Source: Phormidesmis sp. (GTDB lineage: Bacteria > Cyanobacteriota > Cyanobacteriia > Leptolyngbyales > Leptolyngbyaceae). Taken from it: 64,000 bases of DNA. The notes beneath the pieces are model-generated. The model worked only from the letters and a program-made list of their open reading frames with translations, searched no databases and was not told the origin of the DNA. The stretch lies in the NCBI GenBank assembly GCA_965248535.1, contig CBDFJR010000005.1, positions 832,001-896,000 on the forward strand. The letters run 5' to 3'. Below, piece after piece: positions 52,691-64,000 of the stretch. Both the position numbers and the translations under genes were made by a program. Within the stretch, counting starts at the first letter, position 1. Each line of letters starts with the position of its first letter.

Positions 52691-54422
52691 TTAAAACCCT
52701 AAATCAGCCTTTGCTACTTCTGCTGCTTTAAAGACCTGCTCGTTGGGCAATTCTTCCCAGGGAATGTCGCCGATTTCGGTGTAGAACGCTTCATCATAGG
52801 GGCGCGTGCGGATCACGACGGGCATTGGGACAGCATGGCCGAGGATGAGAGCTTGTTGCTTAGAGTCGAGTTTTGAGAGCACCGATCGTAGACTCTGAGC
52901 GCCTGACACCCCGGTAAAAATCGCGTCGATGTCTTTCTCATCATTCAATAGAGCGGTGATGCGAGTCCCGATTTGAGACATGACTTCGTTATCGATGCCA
53001 GACGGACGTTGGTCTACTACGAGCAGCGTGACGAAAGTATTTTCGCATCTCACGGGCGATCGTGCCAAAAATCGTCTGTCCAACGGTGGCAGGGTCGAGA
53101 AAGCGGTGGGCTTCTTCGATCGTGATCACGAGTTGACGAGGACGATCGCTGACATTTTTAGTCTGCAAAAACTTCTCAGCTTTGCGAACATAAGCCTGGT
53201 GAATGCGCCGCGCAATGATGTTGGTTGCCAACATATAAGACAGCAAATTTGACTGCGAGCCAAATTCTACGACGACGTGTTTGCCAGTTTCTAAGCACTC
53301 TAAAACTTGATCGACGTAGTTGTGAGGGCAACTGTTCCGAATGTATTTCAGATCATCAAGTCGATTTAGCTTGCGTTGCAGAGCCATGATCGATGATTTG
53401 CTGCCCATCTTGGTTTCACAAAATTCTTGAATCTCGCCGTTGCTCATGGTCATGAGGCGATTGATCCAGGCTTTGCCAAACTCGTTGCGAAGAATGACCG
53501 CGTTTTCAAGGCTGGCTTCTGAGAGATTAAGCTCTCCGCGCACCAGCATTAGATCCTCGACTTCAAGCTGGTCATAGCCGATGTAGAGTTCTTGAGCGTC
53601 GCGCACGCCTCTGCGCTTGGTCGAGTCGGGGTCGAGAGTGAAGATTTGCACCTGTCCGGGAAAGAGTTGCCGCAGCCCTTTAACGGTGCTGAAGTGTTTG
53701 CCTTCGCGGGTGGCCTCCCAGCCATATTCAGAGTGCATATCAAAGATCAAATTGACGGCTGCTTGTTTGCGAATGATGCCCGACAGCAGCAATCGTGTCA
53801 GAAACGATTTCCCGGTGCCTGACTTGCCGAATACGCCGTTACTGCGTTCGACAAAGCGATCGAGGTCGATGCAAATCGGCACTTCCATATCGATCGGTTG
53901 TCCGATCGCAAAGTTGCGTCGCGTGGGATCATCCTCCCAGCCGAAGACAGCCCGAAAGTCACGATCGCTGGCATCAAACACCTGACTAAAGTGACTGGGA
54001 ATGGTTTTAACGGGCAGCAACTCAATATTGGCGCTGCTGTTTGGCTCGTAAGATGCGGCGGCGGTTTTGGATTTGGATTTCTTTTTTGAAAGGTTGTTGG
54101 CGGCTTGGGCCTCGCTCATCGCCGCTTCGGGCGTAAACATCAGCATGGGCGTGAGGGCGATCGTGCCATAGGTGCCGCTGCCTGCGAGCACTTCTTGCAT
54201 GAAGGTGTTGCTCGGATCAGGAGGATTGGCCACGATGCGGGGGCTGCTGGTGCCGAGAGACACGTCGGTGAGCATACAGAAAAAGCGCGATCGCACACCT
54301 TGGACGACTAAAAATTTGCCGACGCGCATCTCTTCAACTGAGACATCGGGGTGCAGGCGCACTTCTAACCCTTGGCTTAATGAACCTTGGGTTACGGAAC
54401 CTAACGGTTTTTCTGGATTCAT
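52691..54422 (-). pseudogene. herA: HerA-like (DUF87) ATPase with a single +1 frameshift
   Basis: GKSGTGKS, IEEAHRF; expected AREMRKYFVTLLVVDQRPS is split between ORFs 52989-54422 and 52691-53083 by an extra T (AAA at 53034-53036 on +). May be a sequencing error. Confidence 0.8.
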
Positions 54423-54485: not shown

Positions 54486-55172
54486 CTATATTTTGAGAAT
54501 GTAAACGATCGCGAAACAAAAGGGAATCAACTCTCCTCTTTGATTTTTGCTTTTGAAAAGTCGCACCATTTCGTCTTCTGTTAGGTCTTCAATCATGAGA
54601 ATGGCGGTGTCGATCGCAGCTTTTCGGAGGTTTTCGAGTTTTTTATTTTTAGTGCCGAGATTGAGTATTGCAATGGTTGCTGAAGCATCTCCCGAGTGGT
54701 CAAAATCCTCTTTTGCCCAGATTGCTCCACTAGAAGCGTCATATCTGAAGAATGCCTCACAGTCAAACTGTAGGGGTGAGATTGGAAGTGGGCGATCGCC
54801 TCGTTTAATTCCGCAGCGATCTGAACAAGAAAGTAGATTCTCAAATCTTTCTTCTGCCCATTCTTTCTGATATTTTTCTTTGCGCCACTGTTCAGAAATA
54901 CCACAAGAAGCTAGAAGATATTGGTAGTTGATTGTCTCTGATGGATCGGTGAAAGAACTCTGAGACGGAAGATGTTCGATATGGCTATTTTCTAACCTGA
55001 CCTCTACTCCGCAATAGCAGCAAATGTAACCTTGATCAGCCAACAGCGCGTTATGTAAATCTGTTCTCTCTGAACCTCTTAAGTCACTATAACTAGCTGA
55101 CCAGTTTTCGTCGCCTAATGCTTTCCATGCTGTAAGGCTAGACGGTTCTTGACCCTTTTGAATATACTTCAT
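54486..55172 (-). CDS. HNH endonuclease, TIGR02646/PtuB-like
   Basis: MKYIQKGQEP, DQGYICCYC, HIEH, LLASC, C..K.G, TI.ILNL. Confidence 0.85.
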   Translation of the reverse strand: MKYIQKGQEPSSLTAWKALGDENWSASYSDLRGSERTDLHNALLADQGYICCYCGVEVRLENSHIEHLPSQSSFTDPSETINYQYLLASCGISEQWRKEKYQKEWAEERFENLLSCSDRCGIKRGDRPLPISPLQFDCEAFFRYDASSGAIWAKEDFDHSGDASATIAILNLGTKNKKLENLRKAAIDTAILMIEDLTEDEMVRLFKSKNQRGELIPFCFAIVYILKI

Positions 55173-56491
55173 CGACCAATGACTTCATGACGACGGATTA
55201 AAATTTCAGCTTTGACAAATTCTGATTCATCATCGCCGATTTTCTCTGCCATTTCTTTTTTGAGTGCTCTTGCTGCTTCAAGATCGCCGTCTTCAATCAA
55301 TCGAAAAAGTTTTCTTAGCTGTTCTTTAATTTCGATCGATCGACTATCTGCTTCCATTTCATCTTCCAGAATTTCGGCGCTATCTCTTCCGTAGGTTTGT
55401 AGAGATTCAGCAATGATTCCATCAGAAGTTGACTTGAGCCGATAAACTTTACCTTTGACTTCTCCTAAAACTTGAGGCGAATGAGTGGTAACGATAAATT
55501 GACAGTTTGGAAAGGTTCGGGTGAGGGCAGGAACGATATCACGCTGCCACTTTGGATGAAGATGTAACTCGATTTCATCAATCAGGACAACGCCTTCGCC
55601 TTGAAGAGGATCAGGTAGACCGGGGTTAGCGATCGCCAGTCTTCGCGCCAAATCTCCCACCATCGCTAATAGACATTTCTCACCGTCTGAAAGCTGATTG
55701 ATAATCAGTTCTTGACCCTGTTTTTGAACGGTCATGCGGAGGGGCGATCGCCGCACTCGCAGATTTGAAAACCCAGGAAGAAACTCAGTAATTGCTTTTC
55801 GGATCGCTTCTAACTTACGATCAAGATAGACAAAATCATCTCGTCTTTCTTCATTTTCTAGATCTTCTAAAACCCTGAACCATTTAAAGAACTGCTGAAA
55901 TGTAACCTCTTTCTCTCCTAAAGCTTGATTGTAGGCACGTAGCTGGAAGATGGAGTTAAAGCGGTCTAAATCTGCTTGAAAGAAGAATTCATCTGAAGGT
56001 TCCAAATCAACGTTAAGAGTTGTTCTATTCACAGAATAGTGAACCACTAAAGGTATGTTACCTTCCGGACTGTCTTGCCATTTAGTTATTAACTCTTTAG
56101 TAGTTCGTTTCAAACCTTCATCATAAATGTATTCAGCTTGAACGTGCATCATTTTTCTAATTGACCAACTTATATTTTCAGAGTTGAAGTCAATAAGAAT
56201 ATTTAAATCTGCTTGACCTCGGTTATTGTTAATGTCTTGATCGCTTAATGAAGAGTAAAGAGGAGATTGTTGTTTTCTTGCATTAAATATACGAGAGATA
56301 GAATCAGAATCGTCATAGTTATCTCCTAGAACTAGCGAAGCAAAGAGGGAAAATAAAATACCAAGGCAATCCAGGAGCGTAGATTTACCAGCGCCATTGT
56401 TGCCGATCAGCACAGTGATATTTGAATCGAAATCTAGCGTCAGATTATCGATGCCCCGAAATGATTGCACTATCAGACGTTTAACTTTCAT
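55169..56491 (-). CDS. ABC-type AAA ATPase, PtuA-like
   Basis: GNNGAGKST, LSDGEK, VLIDEIELHLHP, TTHSP; ATGA overlap with the HNH gene. Confidence 0.88.
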   Translation of the reverse strand: MKVKRLIVQSFRGIDNLTLDFDSNITVLIGNNGAGKSTLLDCLGILFSLFASLVLGDNYDDSDSISRIFNARKQQSPLYSSLSDQDINNNRGQADLNILIDFNSENISWSIRKMMHVQAEYIYDEGLKRTTKELITKWQDSPEGNIPLVVHYSVNRTTLNVDLEPSDEFFFQADLDRFNSIFQLRAYNQALGEKEVTFQQFFKWFRVLEDLENEERRDDFVYLDRKLEAIRKAITEFLPGFSNLRVRRSPLRMTVQKQGQELIINQLSDGEKCLLAMVGDLARRLAIANPGLPDPLQGEGVVLIDEIELHLHPKWQRDIVPALTRTFPNCQFIVTTHSPQVLGEVKGKVYRLKSTSDGIIAESLQTYGRDSAEILEDEMEADSRSIEIKEQLRKLFRLIEDGDLEAARALKKEMAEKIGDDESEFVKAEILIRRHEVIGR

Positions 56492-57605: not shown

Positions 57606-58250
57606 ATGTGGCAATCGCTGATTTCTTATACCTTGGGGACATTAATCGCCCTGTTTCCGATCGCGAACCCGATCGGGGCCGTGCCGATTTTTTATAGCTT
57701 TACGGCCGATGACACGCCCCGCTATCGCCTCAAACAAGCTCGTAAAACAGCATTCAATGTGGTTGGAGTGCTGGTGACATTTTTGCTGGTAGGCAAACTG
57801 GTGCTCGGCTTTTTTGGAATTTCGCTAGGCGTGCTGCGAATTGCGGGTGGGCTGATTGTCGGGCACACCGCTTGGGAAATGGTCACAGCACGGCGGCGGC
57901 TGACAACTGACGAACACCAAGCAGCCGTTGATCAAGAAGATATCTCGTTTACGCCGATGGCGGTGCCGATGATTGGCGGGCCGGGCGCGATCGGGGTCGT
58001 GATCGGTCAAGCAACTCAGGCAACCGCCTGGATCGATTATCTAGGCTGTGTGCTGGGAATTGGGTTGCTAGGTGGATTGATCTACCTGTTTCTGAGATTG
58101 GGTGAACCTTTGATTGAGAAGATGGGGAAGACAGGCATGGGAGCGCTGAATCGAATTTTGGGCTTTTTGATTTTGGCGATCGCCGTTCAACTCGTCGCCA
58201 ATGGTCTATTGGAATTGATCAAAACAGCCGCGCCTCATTTGTTGAGATAA
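57606..58250 (+). CDS. MarC family membrane protein
   Basis: LFPIANPIGAVPIF, LRIAGG, FTPMAVPMIGGPGAI, RILGF...AIAVQ. Confidence 0.9.
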   Translation: MWQSLISYTLGTLIALFPIANPIGAVPIFYSFTADDTPRYRLKQARKTAFNVVGVLVTFLLVGKLVLGFFGISLGVLRIAGGLIVGHTAWEMVTARRRLTTDEHQAAVDQEDISFTPMAVPMIGGPGAIGVVIGQATQATAWIDYLGCVLGIGLLGGLIYLFLRLGEPLIEKMGKTGMGALNRILGFLILAIAVQLVANGLLELIKTAAPHLLR

Positions 58251-58989
58251 CGTTAGAAGGTGCAACCTTTGACACCAACCGCAGCAAATTGTTGCCGAGC
58301 ACTAAACTCTCTTCGGCAGGAGATAACCCCAACAAACGAATCTTGTGGAGTTCAAGCGCCGGATGTAACCACGGGCCATCGGTGCCGAACAATACCTTAT
58401 GTGCGCCGCCTCTGCGGACTGCTTTGAGCAAATAATCAAACCGACGCACCCCAGAGCTATCGGTATAAACATTAGGCAGCCGGGCAATTTGATCAACGAC
58501 TCGAATGTGGGCTGACCAGTCATCTGCAAAGCTGCCCAAGTGGGGAACAATAAAGTTCACATCGGGATACTGAGGAGCCAGCAGATCAATGATTTCAGGT
58601 TTGCCAACCGGATCGTAGAGGACGGGTAGCCGGAACCTTTGAGCGACCTCGCAAACTTCGCGAGTGACTGGTGCATCGAGTCGATGGGCTTTGATGCCGC
58701 AAAACTTCCATTCAGTCACAGCTTGTTGAACGATCGCATGAATATGTCCCCGATCGCGCTGGGCATGAACAAATGCAAATCCCCAAAATCGCCCTGGATA
58801 CCTGGCAACAATGCGAGCAGTGTTAGCATTTGCTTCTGCATAGTTGCTGTGAAATGGAGAAAAGATCACCGTTTTGTGAATGCCTGCGTCCTGTGCTCGT
58901 TTCAGATAGGTCTCGATCGGGGCATCTGTGTTCCACGGCCCCGTTAACAAGTCGCCTTTTCCGGCATGACAATGACAATCGATAATCAT
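58219..58989 (-). CDS. amidohydrolase family (TIM-barrel metallohydrolase)
   Basis: IDCHCH, GIK.H, PHLG, NVYTD.S, KVLFGTDGP. Confidence 0.88.
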   Translation of the reverse strand: MIIDCHCHAGKGDLLTGPWNTDAPIETYLKRAQDAGIHKTVIFSPFHSNYAEANANTARIVARYPGRFWGFAFVHAQRDRGHIHAIVQQAVTEWKFCGIKAHRLDAPVTREVCEVAQRFRLPVLYDPVGKPEIIDLLAPQYPDVNFIVPHLGSFADDWSAHIRVVDQIARLPNVYTDSSGVRRFDYLLKAVRRGGAHKVLFGTDGPWLHPALELHKIRLLGLSPAEESLVLGNNLLRLVSKVAPSNVISTNEARLF

Positions 58990-60380
58990 GATCCATACTC
59001 CGCAAAGAATCGAATCACGGTTTCAATACCCCGGAAGACGTTAGATAAACTAATTTTCTCGTTGGGTGCGTGGATATCGTCATCGGGCAAGCCAAACCCT
59101 AGCAGCACGATCGGGACGCGCAACCGCCGATAGAGTTGTTCGACCAGAGGAATCGATCCGCCGCTCCGGGTGAACACGGGTAGAACACCCCAAGTTTGTT
59201 CAACAGCGCGAACCGCCGCCCGCATTACAGGACTGTCTTTAGGCAACAAAACTGGACGCGATCCGCTGGTTATTTTCAGCCGACTGTGAATGGCAGGATG
59301 ACTCAAAGTGTTCAGATAACGTTCCAACAGTTGAGCAATTTCTGTGGGTTCTTGATCAGGAACCAATCGCAAACTAAATCGAGCCATTCCTCGACTCGGA
59401 ATCACCGATTTTGCACCCGCTCCTGTGTAGCCGCCTGTCAGTCCGTTAATAGTCAGTGCGGGGCGAATTGTCATCCGCTCAACTAGGTTATAGCCAGGTT
59501 CACCCCAGCCCATCGGCACGTCAAGGTCAGCCAAGATTTGTTGGTTGCGTTTGCAGGCGCAGCGTAGTTGTTGCCGTTCTGTTGGGTGGAGATTTCTGAC
59601 TCGGTGATAAAAGCCAGGAATCGCCACTTTTCCGGTACGATCGTGCAATCCCGCTACCATTTCGCTCAACGCTTGTAATGGATTCAACACAGCGCCGCCA
59701 TAACGCCCCGAATGCAGATCATGTTTGGGGCCGCGCACTTCTAGCTCACCGTTGAGATTGCCCCGTAACCCATAGACAATCGAAGGTCTGCCGCGCCCTA
59801 GCATCTCGGTGTCTGAGACTAAGACAGCATTGGCTTGCAGTCGGTTGGCTTCGCGATCGAGAAACGCCGACAGATTGGGACTGCTAATTTCTTCTTCCCC
59901 TTCTAACCAAATTTTGAGATTTAACGGCAATCGTCCGGTGGTTCTCAAATAGCTTTCGATCGCTTTTAGGTGAACAAAGAACTGTCCTTTGTCGTCGCTG
60001 GCTCCTCTTGCAAATAAGTTGTCTCCAACAATAGTGGCTTTAAAAGGTGGAGTGCGCCATTCCTTTATAGGATCAACAGGCTGTACATCATAATGTCCAT
60101 ACAGCAATAACGTTGGCTTTGCCTCTGCCATTAACCAATCTGCATAGACACTGGGTGCGCCACCATTTACGCCAGCAATCACTTGCACATGATGTAATCC
60201 GATCTCCGATAGGTGTCGCGCTAACCAATGAGCACAGGCTTTAATATCTTTTCGGTGTTGCGGCAGAGCCGAAATAGTAGGAAAAGCGATCAGGTCAGAC
60301 AACTGGGAGAGCCAGCGCGATCGCTGCTCTGATTGCTGACTATAGCGGATCGGGTTGACCGTAATCGGTGAAGTCATCAT
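58986..60380 (-). CDS. M20 family dipeptidase
   Basis: YGHYDVQP, ARGASDDKGQ, EGEEE.SS, DLHSG, GGSIP, HAPNE. Confidence 0.92.
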   Translation of the reverse strand: MMTSPITVNPIRYSQQSEQRSRWLSQLSDLIAFPTISALPQHRKDIKACAHWLARHLSEIGLHHVQVIAGVNGGAPSVYADWLMAEAKPTLLLYGHYDVQPVDPIKEWRTPPFKATIVGDNLFARGASDDKGQFFVHLKAIESYLRTTGRLPLNLKIWLEGEEEISSPNLSAFLDREANRLQANAVLVSDTEMLGRGRPSIVYGLRGNLNGELEVRGPKHDLHSGRYGGAVLNPLQALSEMVAGLHDRTGKVAIPGFYHRVRNLHPTERQQLRCACKRNQQILADLDVPMGWGEPGYNLVERMTIRPALTINGLTGGYTGAGAKSVIPSRGMARFSLRLVPDQEPTEIAQLLERYLNTLSHPAIHSRLKITSGSRPVLLPKDSPVMRAAVRAVEQTWGVLPVFTRSGGSIPLVEQLYRRLRVPIVLLGFGLPDDDIHAPNEKISLSNVFRGIETVIRFFAEYGS

Positions 60381-60381
60381 C

Positions 60382-61527
60382 TCAGGTCAGCAAACTTAAG
60401 GGAACAATGGTATCGCCTACCATCCAATAATCGGCAGCACCAGAAGATTTGAGTTCCACCATTGCAGCGTGAACACAGTTGGTTCCACGCGGAGTGTCAT
60501 CTGGGAATTTTTTATAGCCAAAGCCAACCGGATGCCATTCATATCGATCCATAAACCATAAATGCACCTGTCCCGATGCCCGATCGACTTCAAAATCAAG
60601 ACGGTCGATCGCGCCAAACGCAAATTCAAAATCTTTGACTGCATAATCGCCCCGGCTACCCTGGTGAAGCTTCGTAAACCCCGTGCGATGTTTTTTGATC
60701 AATGCTTTTAACTTGCTGCGAACCTTTGCATCTCGGCGAATCACCGCTTCTAGATCCACGGTCAGCGTCTTTCCGCCCCCTGTTAGATAATGGTCGAAAT
60801 GCTTTTTTGCCAGAGGCAGACCTGCGAGGACAGTTGCACCCGCAATTTGAGCAACTCGTGCAGGTTCAAAGAGCGCACAAGCACACTGCGAAGCGACTGC
60901 GGGCGGAAGACTGGTAATCTTTTTAGGATCTAAAAGCATCTGTTTGGCAGTGTCGCCACACTTTTTCCGGGAGTCTCGCTGAACTTCACTCCAGCGGCCC
61001 GTCGGCAAGTGATTGTGGTTCACTCCAGGAGTAAATTTTGTAACAAATGTTGTACCAGGTGGGCGCGTTTTGGGAGCTACTGGAGCAGGCTTTTTTCCAG
61101 AACGGCGGCGGTCAGCCAGAAAATTTGCAGCATCGCGAACCTGACCCGTAGCCTGTAGATCTCCCACGGGTTTGGGTAACACTCCCGTCATCACAACCGT
61201 CTTGGCATAATTGAGCCGAAGCCAATTGACCATTCCTGCATAGGAAGCAGCACGGCTCCATAGCTCGTTTAACTTAGCTGACCCTAAACTATCTAAGGCC
61301 CGCAGCAGTTCAGCCATGTTCAGCCCATTCAGGTTAAGAAAGGCACCTCTCCAATCTCCTGCGCTAACTGCATTCTCGAAGGCTCGGCGAACAGAACTAG
61401 GAACCGATTCATACTCCAGTTCAAAGGCTGCCTCATCTTCTGTTTGCCACTGAGAATAGGCATTGTTAGAACCAGATTGCTCTGAAATGAGCGGTGCCTC
61501 AAACAACCACTGACCTGTTTTGTTCAT
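60382..61527 (-). CDS. hypothetical WLFEAP-leader protein with toxin-like C-terminal domain
   Basis: Leader MNKTGQWLFEAP; RBS AGGAG; C-domain HYLTGGG...FGAID...DRYEWH. Confidence 0.75.
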   Translation of the reverse strand: MNKTGQWLFEAPLISEQSGSNNAYSQWQTEDEAAFELEYESVPSSVRRAFENAVSAGDWRGAFLNLNGLNMAELLRALDSLGSAKLNELWSRAASYAGMVNWLRLNYAKTVVMTGVLPKPVGDLQATGQVRDAANFLADRRRSGKKPAPVAPKTRPPGTTFVTKFTPGVNHNHLPTGRWSEVQRDSRKKCGDTAKQMLLDPKKITSLPPAVASQCACALFEPARVAQIAGATVLAGLPLAKKHFDHYLTGGGKTLTVDLEAVIRRDAKVRSKLKALIKKHRTGFTKLHQGSRGDYAVKDFEFAFGAIDRLDFEVDRASGQVHLWFMDRYEWHPVGFGYKKFPDDTPRGTNCVHAAMVELKSSGAADYWMVGDTIVPLSLLT

Positions 61528-61580
61528 GATTTAACTCCTGATTGCTTTGGGTAACTCCAAAAGAATCGCAATGTTGTCCC

Positions 61581-62567
61581 TTAGCGATTCTGCAAAAATG
61601 AAGCAGCCCTGATGCGCGGCTGCCAATATCGAATCGGAACTTCGTTGTGAGACCCCGTTGCCGATCGGGTCACAAATACGTTGAGAAGCTTTTGGCGTTT
61701 TGCTTTGGCTTGCAGACTAACCGCCTGAGCTTTGGTGCTGCACGACGGTCTTTTGGGAGGCGGACAATCGATATTGATGTAATAAATGTAGAGGTTACTG
61801 GAGGGGTTTGTGGCGGCCCACCTTGCCCATCCGCTATCGTCGCCGCCATTGTAGGTGCAGTCAAATCCCCAACACTCCCGAATATTAGCGGCATACTTTT
61901 CCTTTGATAAAGCAATCTGCCGCATCGGTAGCCCACCGCCTGAATGACAGGCCAGAATAATCTTACCCACCCTCGGCGTTTGTCGCCCTTGGTGGGGCCC
62001 ATAAGCGCTGAGAGATGCGAGTATCTGATCGAGGTAAGCATCGAACCCGCCCGGTTGAACAAGCGTTCCGGCTTGCGATCGCGACCCCAAGGTCGGCGCA
62101 ACTAAAATGACATTTTTCCCACTGGCATTCAATTCTTCCCGCAGCCCAAAGAAGGGGTAAGCGGTGCGATTCCAGTACTGATTAATCGTCAAGTTAGAGG
62201 GGAAATAGCCCCGACCTGGCGCTTTTCCTCGAATCACGTTGTCTCTGTGATGACCCTGTAGATAGAGAATTAAATCCACGCTGTCGGTCGCTGAATAATT
62301 CTCAGGAATAAAAATTCCCGTCATGGGTCTGGGGCAGACGGGCGGAGCCTTCGGGCTGCTGGTCGTACAGCCGAGGTTGATGTCAACATAGAGGGTCGAG
62401 TTGAGCGGCGTTGATTCGGTGCTGATCAGGGTGGGAAGGGCGGGCAAGAGTGGGGGAGCTTCAAACAGCCATTCCTGTTCAGCCTCAAGGGTTCCATAAG
62501 GGTTGCTGTTGTGAATCGCTTCTGACGAGAACGGTGCCTCAAATAGCCAGGGGTGAAGAGTCTTCAT
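61581..62567 (-). CDS. WLFEAP-leader protein with alpha/beta-hydrolase-like domain
   Basis: Two WLFEAP copies; ILYLQGH, ILVAP, LACHSGGG, GFDCTY, C-terminal HNEVP. Confidence 0.75.
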   Translation of the reverse strand: MKTLHPWLFEAPFSSEAIHNSNPYGTLEAEQEWLFEAPPLLPALPTLISTESTPLNSTLYVDINLGCTTSSPKAPPVCPRPMTGIFIPENYSATDSVDLILYLQGHHRDNVIRGKAPGRGYFPSNLTINQYWNRTAYPFFGLREELNASGKNVILVAPTLGSRSQAGTLVQPGGFDAYLDQILASLSAYGPHQGRQTPRVGKIILACHSGGGLPMRQIALSKEKYAANIRECWGFDCTYNGGDDSGWARWAATNPSSNLYIYYINIDCPPPKRPSCSTKAQAVSLQAKAKRQKLLNVFVTRSATGSHNEVPIRYWQPRIRAASFLQNR

Positions 62568-62576
62568 AGTTTTGCG

Positions 62577-63737
62577 CTAGGTCGGTGGATTATATTCCCA
62601 GTGCCAAGGTTCACGATCGTAGGGATAAAACCCAAAGGAGGCGGCATTTTGCACCAGCCATTGATAGGCAGAGGTTGCCCGCATCTTCTTCACGTTTTTA
62701 GAGCTAATGCCAAACCCTAGCCAGAGATCGATCGCTCGACCCGTCTGGTGCACACTTTTGCCGGGAGGTGCCACCCACTTGCGGGCTTCCGCTTCAGAGC
62801 CATAGCGCTTCAGCGCCGCGTCCCAAAGTTGCTTCTGATGGGCGACGCTGCGAAACCCTGAGACCAGTTCTAGAGTCGGGGCCGCTAATCCAGCGCTACG
62901 GGCTGCCTCCACTAGCAAAAGATAGGACTGAGCCGCCTGATCCAGCAGCAGAACTTTTTTGCCTCTGTAGCCCCGGACTTTGACGAGTCTCGATTCAGGA
63001 GGAATGGTAATCACCTTGACTCGACCACCGCCCGTTTCAGTCGTTTCTCTATTGCTGGAGTCGGATTGCTCAGACAACACCCCAACTTGGCGCAAATGGC
63101 GATCGATTTGGCGGCGATTTGCAACGGGCACTCGCTCCCACGCGGCTAAAAATTGATGCTGCCGCCCATCTTTGAGATAGCGAAGATAGCCAGTAGGGGT
63201 GATATGCCAGAGCCGGATGCCGCGGGCAGCATCCAGTTCTGTGCCGCCTGCCGCCCGCACTTCTGCAAAGAGTTCTGCATATTTTTGAATGGGGCGGGCA
63301 ATTTCTTCATGGGGAGTGCTGTCCCAAGGAGAGGCGGTTGAGGCCACCCCGCGCAGCGATCGCCAAGCTGCCCGATTAAACTGAAAGACTCCCCAAGCGC
63401 TGATAAACGGCTTTCCCTGCCGTTGGGCACTCGGTAAAGCATTGAAGATATTTGCCGGACGACCGAACATTGCCCCACTTTCAGTCTGGGCTAGATGTTT
63501 AACCGTCGTGACAAAGATTTCGCCTTGACCGTGCGATCGGGCCAGTCGATCAATAGGGAGTAATGCCGCATTGCTGCGACTGGTCAGCCGAGCATTGTTG
63601 GGTAATCCTGGCGGACGGCGTGATTTCCATTTCGGCCCATACTCTTTTCCAGGAACAACGGGATATGGACTGTTGTTTTTTTCAACAGGGGGCGAGACAA
63701 CGGGTGCTTCAAAGAGCCACTGGCTTTGCGTCTTCAT
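62577..63737 (-). CDS. WLFEAP-leader protein with lysozyme-like and M15B (VanY-like) peptidase domains
   Basis: AQTESG and AWGVFQF; SGFRS...Q, APPGKSVHQTGRAIDL, EPWHWEY. Confidence 0.85.
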   Translation of the reverse strand: MKTQSQWLFEAPVVSPPVEKNNSPYPVVPGKEYGPKWKSRRPPGLPNNARLTSRSNAALLPIDRLARSHGQGEIFVTTVKHLAQTESGAMFGRPANIFNALPSAQRQGKPFISAWGVFQFNRAAWRSLRGVASTASPWDSTPHEEIARPIQKYAELFAEVRAAGGTELDAARGIRLWHITPTGYLRYLKDGRQHQFLAAWERVPVANRRQIDRHLRQVGVLSEQSDSSNRETTETGGGRVKVITIPPESRLVKVRGYRGKKVLLLDQAAQSYLLLVEAARSAGLAAPTLELVSGFRSVAHQKQLWDAALKRYGSEAEARKWVAPPGKSVHQTGRAIDLWLGFGISSKNVKKMRATSAYQWLVQNAASFGFYPYDREPWHWEYNPPT

Positions 63738-63799
63738 CGTTCAAACTCTCTCGTTGAAAGGGTGAGCCGTTTGCATTAAGCGGTGGATCAATCATTTAG

Positions 63800-64000
63800 T
63801 TACCCCACAACTCGCGGTGCAGGCATTAAGCCATTCGATCGGGCAAACACGGGATCTCGTCGAGCACCACTGGGCGGCGGGCCGGGCTGATAGACGTTCC
63901 GGGGTGGCGGAGTTGGGCGGCTGATCCGCATTCCTTCTTCACTAGAGAGCCATTCTTCAGAATATTCAGCAATGCGGTAGAGTAACGCCTCAAAATCTGT
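63800..64000 (-). CDS. C-terminal end of a further operon gene (runs off the window)
   Basis: Open frame TDFEALLYRIAEYSEEWLSSEEGMRISRPTPPPRNVYQPGPPPSGARRDPVFARSNGLMPAPRVVG*, stop at 63800-63802. Confidence 0.55.
   Translation of the reverse strand, partial: TDFEALLYRIAEYSEEWLSSEEGMRISRPTPPPRNVYQPGPPPSGARRDPVFARSNGLMPAPRVVG

Follow-up and report, generated by a model that had tools for sequence, protein, structure and literature searches.

A leader shared by unrelated cargo proteins and a four-gene core define a candidate polymorphic effector operon in Phormidesmis and other bacteria

The DUF4157 domain has been described, in the available part of the source, as the N-terminal partner of toxins of extracellular contractile injection systems (eCIS) (PMC8213781). 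The available text of a second source counts DUF4157 among the trafficking domains of polymorphic toxins, together with VgrG, PAAR, DUF4150, HCP, LXG, MafB, Wxg100_esat6 and Phage_min_cap2, and further with SpvB, PrsW-protease, DUF4280 and TANFOR (10.1101/2021.10.19.465003). Here we describe an operon at the end of a 64,000-nucleotide stretch of a Phormidesmis sp. genome (contig CBDFJR010000005.1, positions 832,001 to 896,000; hereafter the window), in which three unrelated cargo genes start with the same WLFEAP-containing leader of about 12 residues and follow four conserved genes, c0 to c3, that lie at and beyond the end of the window. At the level of sequence, we found a fixed c0-c1-c2-c3 core, a variable slot, a FEAP start copied from that of c0 and cationic payloads rich in peptidoglycan hydrolases and binders. 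On balance, we interpret the operon as an undescribed polymorphic antibacterial effector system, in which tag-directed co-assembly would be followed by unmasking by c1, release by lysis and a breach of the target envelope by c0.

Like polymorphic toxin systems, as far as the accessible text on them goes, the operon combines a constant N-terminal part with variable C-terminal payloads (86 tagged proteins, 27 groups) and has a patchy distribution. Unlike them, it uses a FEAP tag that is missing from the trafficking domains named in that text (10.1101/2021.10.19.465003), it shows no adjacent immunity genes in the window, and it has four unnamed core genes. Similarly to the eCIS DUF4157 effectors, in what could be consulted of their description (PMC8213781), it has, towards the 3' end of the operon, variable toxin domains headed by a conserved N-terminal module; the system also includes an HExxH motif, GerE/BTAD regulators lie in the neighbourhood, and one C-terminal domain is directly shared by both. 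In contrast to eCIS, the tag is a stretch of about 12 residues and not a domain, the operon has no sheath, tube or baseplate, and the common domain, found in cargo 3, has the opposite net charge to that in DUF4157 effectors. Being polymorphic-toxin-like, failing the eCIS and Sec/Tat tests given below and having an unnamed core, the operon appears to be new as a system; the full-text literature, with subscription papers and supplements outside coverage, gave no description of it.

The leader and its cargos

Three consecutive open reading frames (ORFs) on the minus strand of the window, 63737-62577, 62567-61581 and 61527-60382, carry the leader, with W as residue 7 and S as residue 15 in all three and with differing codons. 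The leader covers residues 1-12 of each protein, that is 63702..63737 in cargo 1, 62532..62567 in cargo 2 and 61492..61527 in cargo 3 (all minus strand, found both by six-frame scan and by profile), and the six-frame scan located a second, internal WLFEAP at residues 33-38 of cargo 2 (62454..62471, minus strand). Over the whole genome (5,028,601 bases), WLFEAP occurs in exactly four copies, all within the three cargo genes. A Met-anchored leader profile, derived from 36 leaders taken from other genomes, was used to score 26,121 genome sites; the top four were the three cargos (37.7, 28.4 and 26.4) and the upstream gene c0 (21.1), the next best site reaching 6.1.

These results bear out a first-pass annotation of the window, which had reported three genes opening with a WLFEAP leader with W at residue 7 and an extra internal copy, and had proposed such a profile search. 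The conserved Ser15 that it also reported is true of the three window genes but is not a feature of the family (10 of 40 leaders). Within the span that it had assigned to the operon, 58219..64000, the leader is present on the three cargos and not on the M20 dipeptidase and amidohydrolase, none of whose 26 homologues has it. As it had stated, the downstream domains are mutually unrelated, BLAST among the post-leader parts of the three window cargos giving no match.

Cargo 1 (386 residues; 62577..63737, minus strand) consists of the leader, an unnamed domain (residues 33-221) and an M15B/VanY-type peptidoglycan peptidase (residues 265-384; PF02557, E 3.4e-23). Its unnamed domain shares 68% identity over 190 residues with a protein from a related operon (locus L052), whose acidic leader is of another kind. 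Cargo 2 (328 residues; 61581..62567, minus strand) joins the leader to a probable alpha/beta hydrolase, as judged from an alignment of 7 homologues in which an A-x-H-S-G-x-G stretch (HSGGG motif), an Asp and a late His are conserved; it had no Pfam match and no significant match in the PDB. Cargo 3 (381 residues; 60382..61527, minus strand) has the leader, a helical module and an unnamed C-terminal domain (residues 150-381) that is elsewhere fused to DUF4157, OmpA or PG-binding domains. Among the best 120 of 151 homologues of this domain, 41 have a DUF4157-type HExxH, 21 start with MY[LF]xE[AV] and 4 with WLFEAP. One payload domain thus travels with different tags, as would be expected of an address. 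In the 21 homologues of the second kind (P0279-P0315), MY[LF]xE[AV] stands directly before the domain and is possibly the sister tag of another system; the pattern MY[LF]xE[AV]P was found in 0 of 97 fetched loci.

Counting plus-strand ORFs of at least 100 residues in the cargo slot, with the motif at most 10 residues from a Met, we found the leader in 40 of 53 ORFs, compared with 0 of 104 c1-c3 genes and 0 of 26 tail genes; outside these groups, 1 of 282 ORFs had it, and that one is itself a cargo. The post-leader parts of 86 tagged proteins (64 at 95% identity) fell into 27 homology groups. The motif is therefore not confined to this locus, one of the outcomes that would have spoken against the first-pass annotation; nor is it a strand of a single homologous N-terminal domain, the 40-residue leader being too short and too variable for that. 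When 39 cargos of other genomes were searched with Pfam, 17 had peptidoglycan-hydrolase or peptidoglycan-binding matches (M23, GH25, SLT, Amidase_2, CHAP, M74, OmpA or PG_binding_1, one of them also with phospholipase D) and 2 had other matches. A hydrophobic h-region or twin-Arg motif was detected in 0 of 86 cargos by a simple hydropathy and motif test, no dedicated predictor being used, in agreement with the earlier statement that Sec/Tat-type signals are absent. The cargo bodies (after residue 60) are cationic, with a median net charge of +13, at least +5 in 78 of 86 and no negative value; by comparison, 2009 ORFs of similar length in the genome had a median of -3, with 17% at +5 or above.

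F is residue 9 in 39 of 40 cargo leaders, while the spacing varies in c0, and F9, E10 and P12 are 90-100% conserved while synonymous positions are saturated. All 6 Leu and all 4 Pro codons are in use, and the two Glu codons occur 20:18. This codon diversity indicates that the constraint acts on the protein and not on DNA or RNA, as the first-pass annotation had proposed from fewer copies. The DNA upstream of the leaders has only an AGGA-like element in common.

We could also trace where the leader comes from. The motif opens 29 of 35 c0 proteins whose genes adjoin c1 (3 more have it internally), compared with 1 of 16 other c0 paralogues; with a stricter pattern, 25 of 51 c0 were matched. Since c0 opens with the same motif (MFEAP), the cargo leader is a copy of the N-terminus of this core protein, and the NSPY/SNPY/NNAY and EWE stretches of the cargos are remnants of the c0 repeats. 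In metagenomes, a DNA pattern for the leader alone retrieved 17 loci, two of them on one contig; core or tail genes accompany 13, c3 accompanies 11, and the 4 without core or tail genes sit on contigs shorter than 2.6 kb. An exact match to a similar pattern was found in 2 of 401 genomes of the cyanobacterial phylum, both with c3. One-mismatch matches numbered 4, in 3 genomes without c3, which is at the level of the 9 matches to the reversed-pattern control.

The core genes and their distribution

The core genes share one strand. The last of them, c3 (385 residues; C5:895800-896957, minus strand), has its 3' end in the window at 63800..64000, and is preceded by c2 (474 residues; C5:897009-898433), c1 (449 residues, basic; C5:898506-899855) and c0 (399 residues; C5:899906-901105). 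A divergent LuxR-type gene lies next to c0 (C5:901904-902326). The first-pass annotation had placed the core machinery probably past position 64000 and had proposed a protein-level shared tag on modular, envelope-directed payloads, and our data support both. It had suggested looking there for sheath, tube, capsid or exporter genes; none was recognised among the upstream genes or elsewhere in the operon. Searches of c0-c3 against Pfam, NCBIfam, PHROG and PADLOC gave no significant match, a weak PHROG match on the c0 repeats including no passing stretch, and all four are named 'hypothetical' in databases. Homology between the four was undetected as well (hhalign probability <1%).

The c0 protein starts with MFEAP and continues with HYSNPY..EFEDEWE repeats, the acidic leader having a net charge of -36. 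At EGEY|FFKK the sequence switches, and the next 30 residues have a charge of +9 and a hydrophobic moment of 0.81, as in a cationic amphipathic helix. The homologues with this junction pattern are mostly similar, with +7 to +9 in 30 residues and a high hydrophobic moment. With an acidic leader followed by a cationic helix, c0 is a mirror image of the cargos. Insects and frogs produce cationic lytic peptides from precursors with acidic pro-pieces, and non-enveloped viruses release lytic peptides from their capsids. By analogy, c0 resembles such precursors in having an acidic region directly before a Phe-led cationic amphipathic helix; unlike them, it holds the helix inside a bacterial protein of 300-400 residues encoded together with a probable peptidase.

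This probable peptidase is c1, with a median charge of +13. It combines H228-E229-x-x-H232 with a downstream E272-x-x-A-D276, which we take to be the pattern of gluzincin peptidases, and H228, E229, H232, E272 and D276 are invariant in 36 of 36 sequences and in 14 of 14 divergent ones. With the gluzincin HExxH and a downstream Glu ligand both present, c1 is probably a zinc peptidase. A match to PF04228 was weak (E 0.25) and limited to 1 of 14 aligned c1.

For c2 and c3, structure prediction gave helical models: c3 was all-helical with a pLDDT (predicted local distance difference test score) of 80.3 and a pTM (predicted template modelling score) of 0.73, and c2 formed helical bundles (pLDDT 76.8, pTM 0.55). 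With c3, Foldseek against PDB and BFVD returned no match at E 0.001, and the best Z among 48,161 chains was 5.7. For c2, the fold search brought up nothing beyond generic four-helix bundles, the best of them with a Z of 13.5 across 121 residues (root-mean-square deviation 3.7). An ESM Atlas search with c2 and c3 gave no usable match, and profile and sequence searches of the PDB with c1, c2, c3 and cargos 2 and 3 gave nothing significant. Encapsulin cargo-loading peptides are short terminal peptides on unrelated cargos, with genes beside a conserved structural gene. The operon is analogous in that a short terminal peptide is common to unrelated cargos beside conserved core genes, and unlike encapsulins in that the models of c2 and c3 consist almost wholly of helices and neither protein matched a capsid family of Pfam or PHROGs.

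By searching with c1, we obtained 36 loci in species-representative genomes, hence 37 with the Phormidesmis locus. According to the genome titles, they belong to cyanobacteria, Melainabacteria/Vampirovibrio, Ktedonobacteraceae, Thermomicrobiales, Acidobacteria, Eremiobacteraeota and actinobacteria; on a Paraburkholderia plasmid, a c1 of 47% identity adjoins a c0-like gene. All four core genes are present in 28 of the 37 loci, in the order c0-c1-c2-c3 in 28 of 28, and the variable slot, which lies between c3 and the dipeptidase, brings at most six tagged genes to any one locus. The conserved tail of the operon is made of two genes without leader, an M20 dipeptidase (464 residues; 58986..60380, minus strand; NF006053 above cut-off; 11 of 37 loci) and an Amidohydrolase_2 protein (256 residues; 58219..58989, minus strand; PF04909, E 2.8e-15; 15 of 37 loci), and 18 of 29 c3 loci also hold an M20 dipeptidase or amidohydrolase. 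With c3, we found 3064 homologues among 8000 scored candidates, in 764 clusters at 50% identity. Their distribution is patchy: in samples from three phyla, c3 occurs in 9 of 401 genomes, 5 of 301 (weakest E 8e-4) and 3 of 251.

A proposed mechanism and its alternatives

For the binding partner of the tag, cleavage, assembly, release or export and the target of the cargos, we infer the following scheme. One of the core proteins would recognise the FEAP motif as an address, and cargos would thereby be handled along with c0. The polyanionic c0 repeats and leaders would hold the cationic cargos, and likewise the amphipathic c0 helix, packed and masked in a cytoplasmic assembly based on c2/c3. The basic HExxH peptidase c1 would then remove the acidic pro-regions, probably near EGE[YF]|FFKK of c0, and unmask a membrane-active helix. 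The assembly would get out of the cell, for which lysis of the producer is the simplest route, and c0 would open the target envelope for the wall-degrading cargos, while the dipeptidase and the amidohydrolase would recycle released peptides. The four unnamed families, conserved in several phyla, come with a changing array of wall-degrading and other enzymes that bear a very short tag. If they package or deliver these proteins, the operon would be a bacterial weapon distinct from known systems of secretion and injection, and its core includes a protein that gave no structural match.

Several observations weigh against this scheme. First, no leader-bearing cargo was found in 8 of 29 c3 loci, some of which are cut contigs, and related operons of cyanobacteria, acidobacteria and actinobacteria keep c0-c3 with plain acidic leaders and no FEAP. 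Second, 20 of the 39 cargos searched with Pfam had no match, although by the same count the leader exposes many unnamed effector domains; the acidic stretch, which the first-pass annotation had noted in two of the three window genes, is only partly kept, with a net charge of -3 or less in residues 13-50 in 42 of 86 cargos, absence from about half and +5 in the gene at 63737. Third, a charge contrast that speaks for the scheme ignores relatedness: among homologues of at least 50% identity, the domain of cargo 3 has a charge of +7 behind WLFEAP (n=4), +8 behind MYLxE (n=21) and -4.5 behind DUF4157 (n=16). Fourth, the c0 junction pattern matched only part of the 62 c0 examined, a clear transmembrane segment is missing from all core proteins (hydropathy over 19 residues at best 1.4-1.6), and neither an ATPase nor a channel was recognised. 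Finally, export, cleavage, assembly and killing are predictions from sequence, and the cleavage site and membrane activity of c0 are read off a sequence pattern.

The same proteins could instead serve programmed self-lysis or wall remodelling, in which c1 would activate masked tagged hydrolases and a holin-like c0 would give them access to the cell's own wall, for cell death, filament breakage or defence. We regard this as unlikely, even though the cargos are mostly peptidoglycan enzymes without signals, c0 carries a masked amphipathic helix, and regulators are linked to the operon. No adjacent immunity gene was found in the window, where the gaps after the three cargos (9, 53 and 1 nt) leave no space for one; the other loci were read for ORFs of at least 80-100 residues. 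On the other side, 27 cargo groups, up to six tagged genes per locus and an exchange with eCIS-type effectors suit an arms race better, and the PADLOC anti-phage models (2023 library) gave 0 matches for 10 proteins at E 0.01.

Alpha-ketoglutarate-dependent HExxH enzymes act as modifying enzymes of the type found for RiPPs (peptides made by the ribosome and modified after translation). In a RiPP-like pathway, the HYSNP/EWE repeats of c0 would be core peptides, FEAP a leader-recognition motif and c1 the modifying enzyme, the cargos being tagged for modification. A short hydrophobic N-terminal motif and Tyr/Trp/His-rich repeats adjoining an HExxH enzyme would fit. Yet c1 found no NCBIfam match at E up to 1 (nor did three divergent c1 at 0.1), and its downstream E-x-x-A-D is gluzincin-like. 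Moreover, the c0 repeats vary freely in sequence and number, to HEWE in actinobacteria, many cargos have no repeats, and neither a dedicated transporter nor a radical SAM partner was recognised among the conserved neighbours. We find this explanation very improbable.

Equally hard to credit, or slightly more so, is a loading of the cargos in trans into one of the two eCIS particles of the genome; the first-pass annotation had considered loading into a contractile injection system among other options. The Phormidesmis genome does have sheath/tube matches at C2:520 kb and C5:2.23-2.25 Mb, the operon being at C5:0.89 Mb; these two eCIS-like loci (C2:517800-548000 and C5:2229700-2259500) hold a sheath and several tube genes. 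Both exact-leader genomes among the 401 have a tube gene, as do 21 of 36 c1 genomes, a share above the 51 of 401 overall but close to that of a single large family of cyanobacteria (28 of 46), and the cargo 3 domain also occurs in DUF4157 proteins. On the other hand, no leader was found near the two eCIS loci, and the leader derives from c0. A tube match is absent from 7 of 9 c3 genomes (one of them single-contig) and from 15 of 36 c1 genomes, many of these being incomplete; six of the latter have tagged cargos (L012, L013, L020, L028, L038 and L039, several of them incomplete assemblies). The existence of such genomes indicates that an eCIS of the same genome is not required, and a dependence of the operon on eCIS is not supported, with incomplete assemblies weakening this negative. 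PF13699 (DUF4157) had no match in the window cargos, the core or the 39 other cargos, and only 12 HExxH columns of c1 aligned with the DUF4157 profile (hhalign probability 3%).

Least credible of all is that the leader is a functionless duplication relic or a recombination junction supplying a translation start: the nearly fixed position of F9 does show common descent, but F9, E10 and P12 are kept despite saturated synonymous sites, and in the upstream DNA only the AGGA-like element is shared.

Beyond the polymorphic effector reading, we tentatively, and with less confidence, put forward that c0-c1-c2-c3 may form a new kind of protein particle that carries toxins and has no relation to phage tails or to HK97 shells. 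Here, a polyanionic scaffold would condense cationic effectors bearing a 12-residue tag, and a co-packaged peptidase would arm a membrane-breaching helix. The operon would then represent a single branch of a superfamily that spans several phyla and is recognisable by the c3 fold, other branches using other tags (plain acidic leaders, possibly MY[LF]xE[AV]P) and proteases (S8). Since named cultured cyanobacteria carry the operon, the system is easy to test.

Related loci and other features of the window

Because related c0-c3 operons use acidic leaders without FEAP, we regard FEAP as the tag of one subtype and not as universal. A distant c3 relative (~30% identity) is part of another operon, alongside genes for an S8 peptidase and for acidic-repeat proteins, one of which ends in an EndoU nuclease. 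This conserved operon (L055:1-14422, L056:7655-19999) also encodes a Ser/Thr-rich hairpin-like protein and a protein with a masked amphipathic segment. A third subtype (L053:2369-10180, L054:9636-17423) has two c0-like genes, a divergent c1, a 660-residue protein and c3, with no cargo slot, and L053 additionally holds a collagen-repeat protein. Other distant c3 relatives (P0217, P0239, P0240, P0246 and P0247) are fused to PKD, Big_2 or helix-hairpin-helix domains, and single c3-like genes stand alone in L093, L094 and L097.

Many loci have a variable helical gene of 140-320 residues between c1 and c2 (for instance L005:11328-11933 and L011:5963-6898), which is absent from the Phormidesmis genome. 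Genes similar to Uma2-type endonucleases have repeatedly been inserted into the cargo slot or next to it, on either strand (L016, L017, L024, L028, L049 and L068). On a Bradyrhizobium plasmid (L099:4405-14127), a distant c1 relative (26%) lies amid genes for phospholipase D, patatin, S8 and two CHAT-domain proteins, a set that might form a module of its own for conflict or cell death.

A prophage origin of the operon is unsupported because viral contigs and phage records held no c3 relative. The GC content is near that of the genome, and scanning for promoters and terminators turned up fewer sites than in shuffled sequences. Elsewhere in the window, a HerA-like ATPase gene (52691-54422) seems to be split into two overlapping frames near 52989-53083, by a frameshift or a sequence error. 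At 54486-56491, an AAA ATPase-like gene is followed by a small HNH-like gene; by their motifs, judged by eye, the two look like an ATPase-nuclease defence pair.

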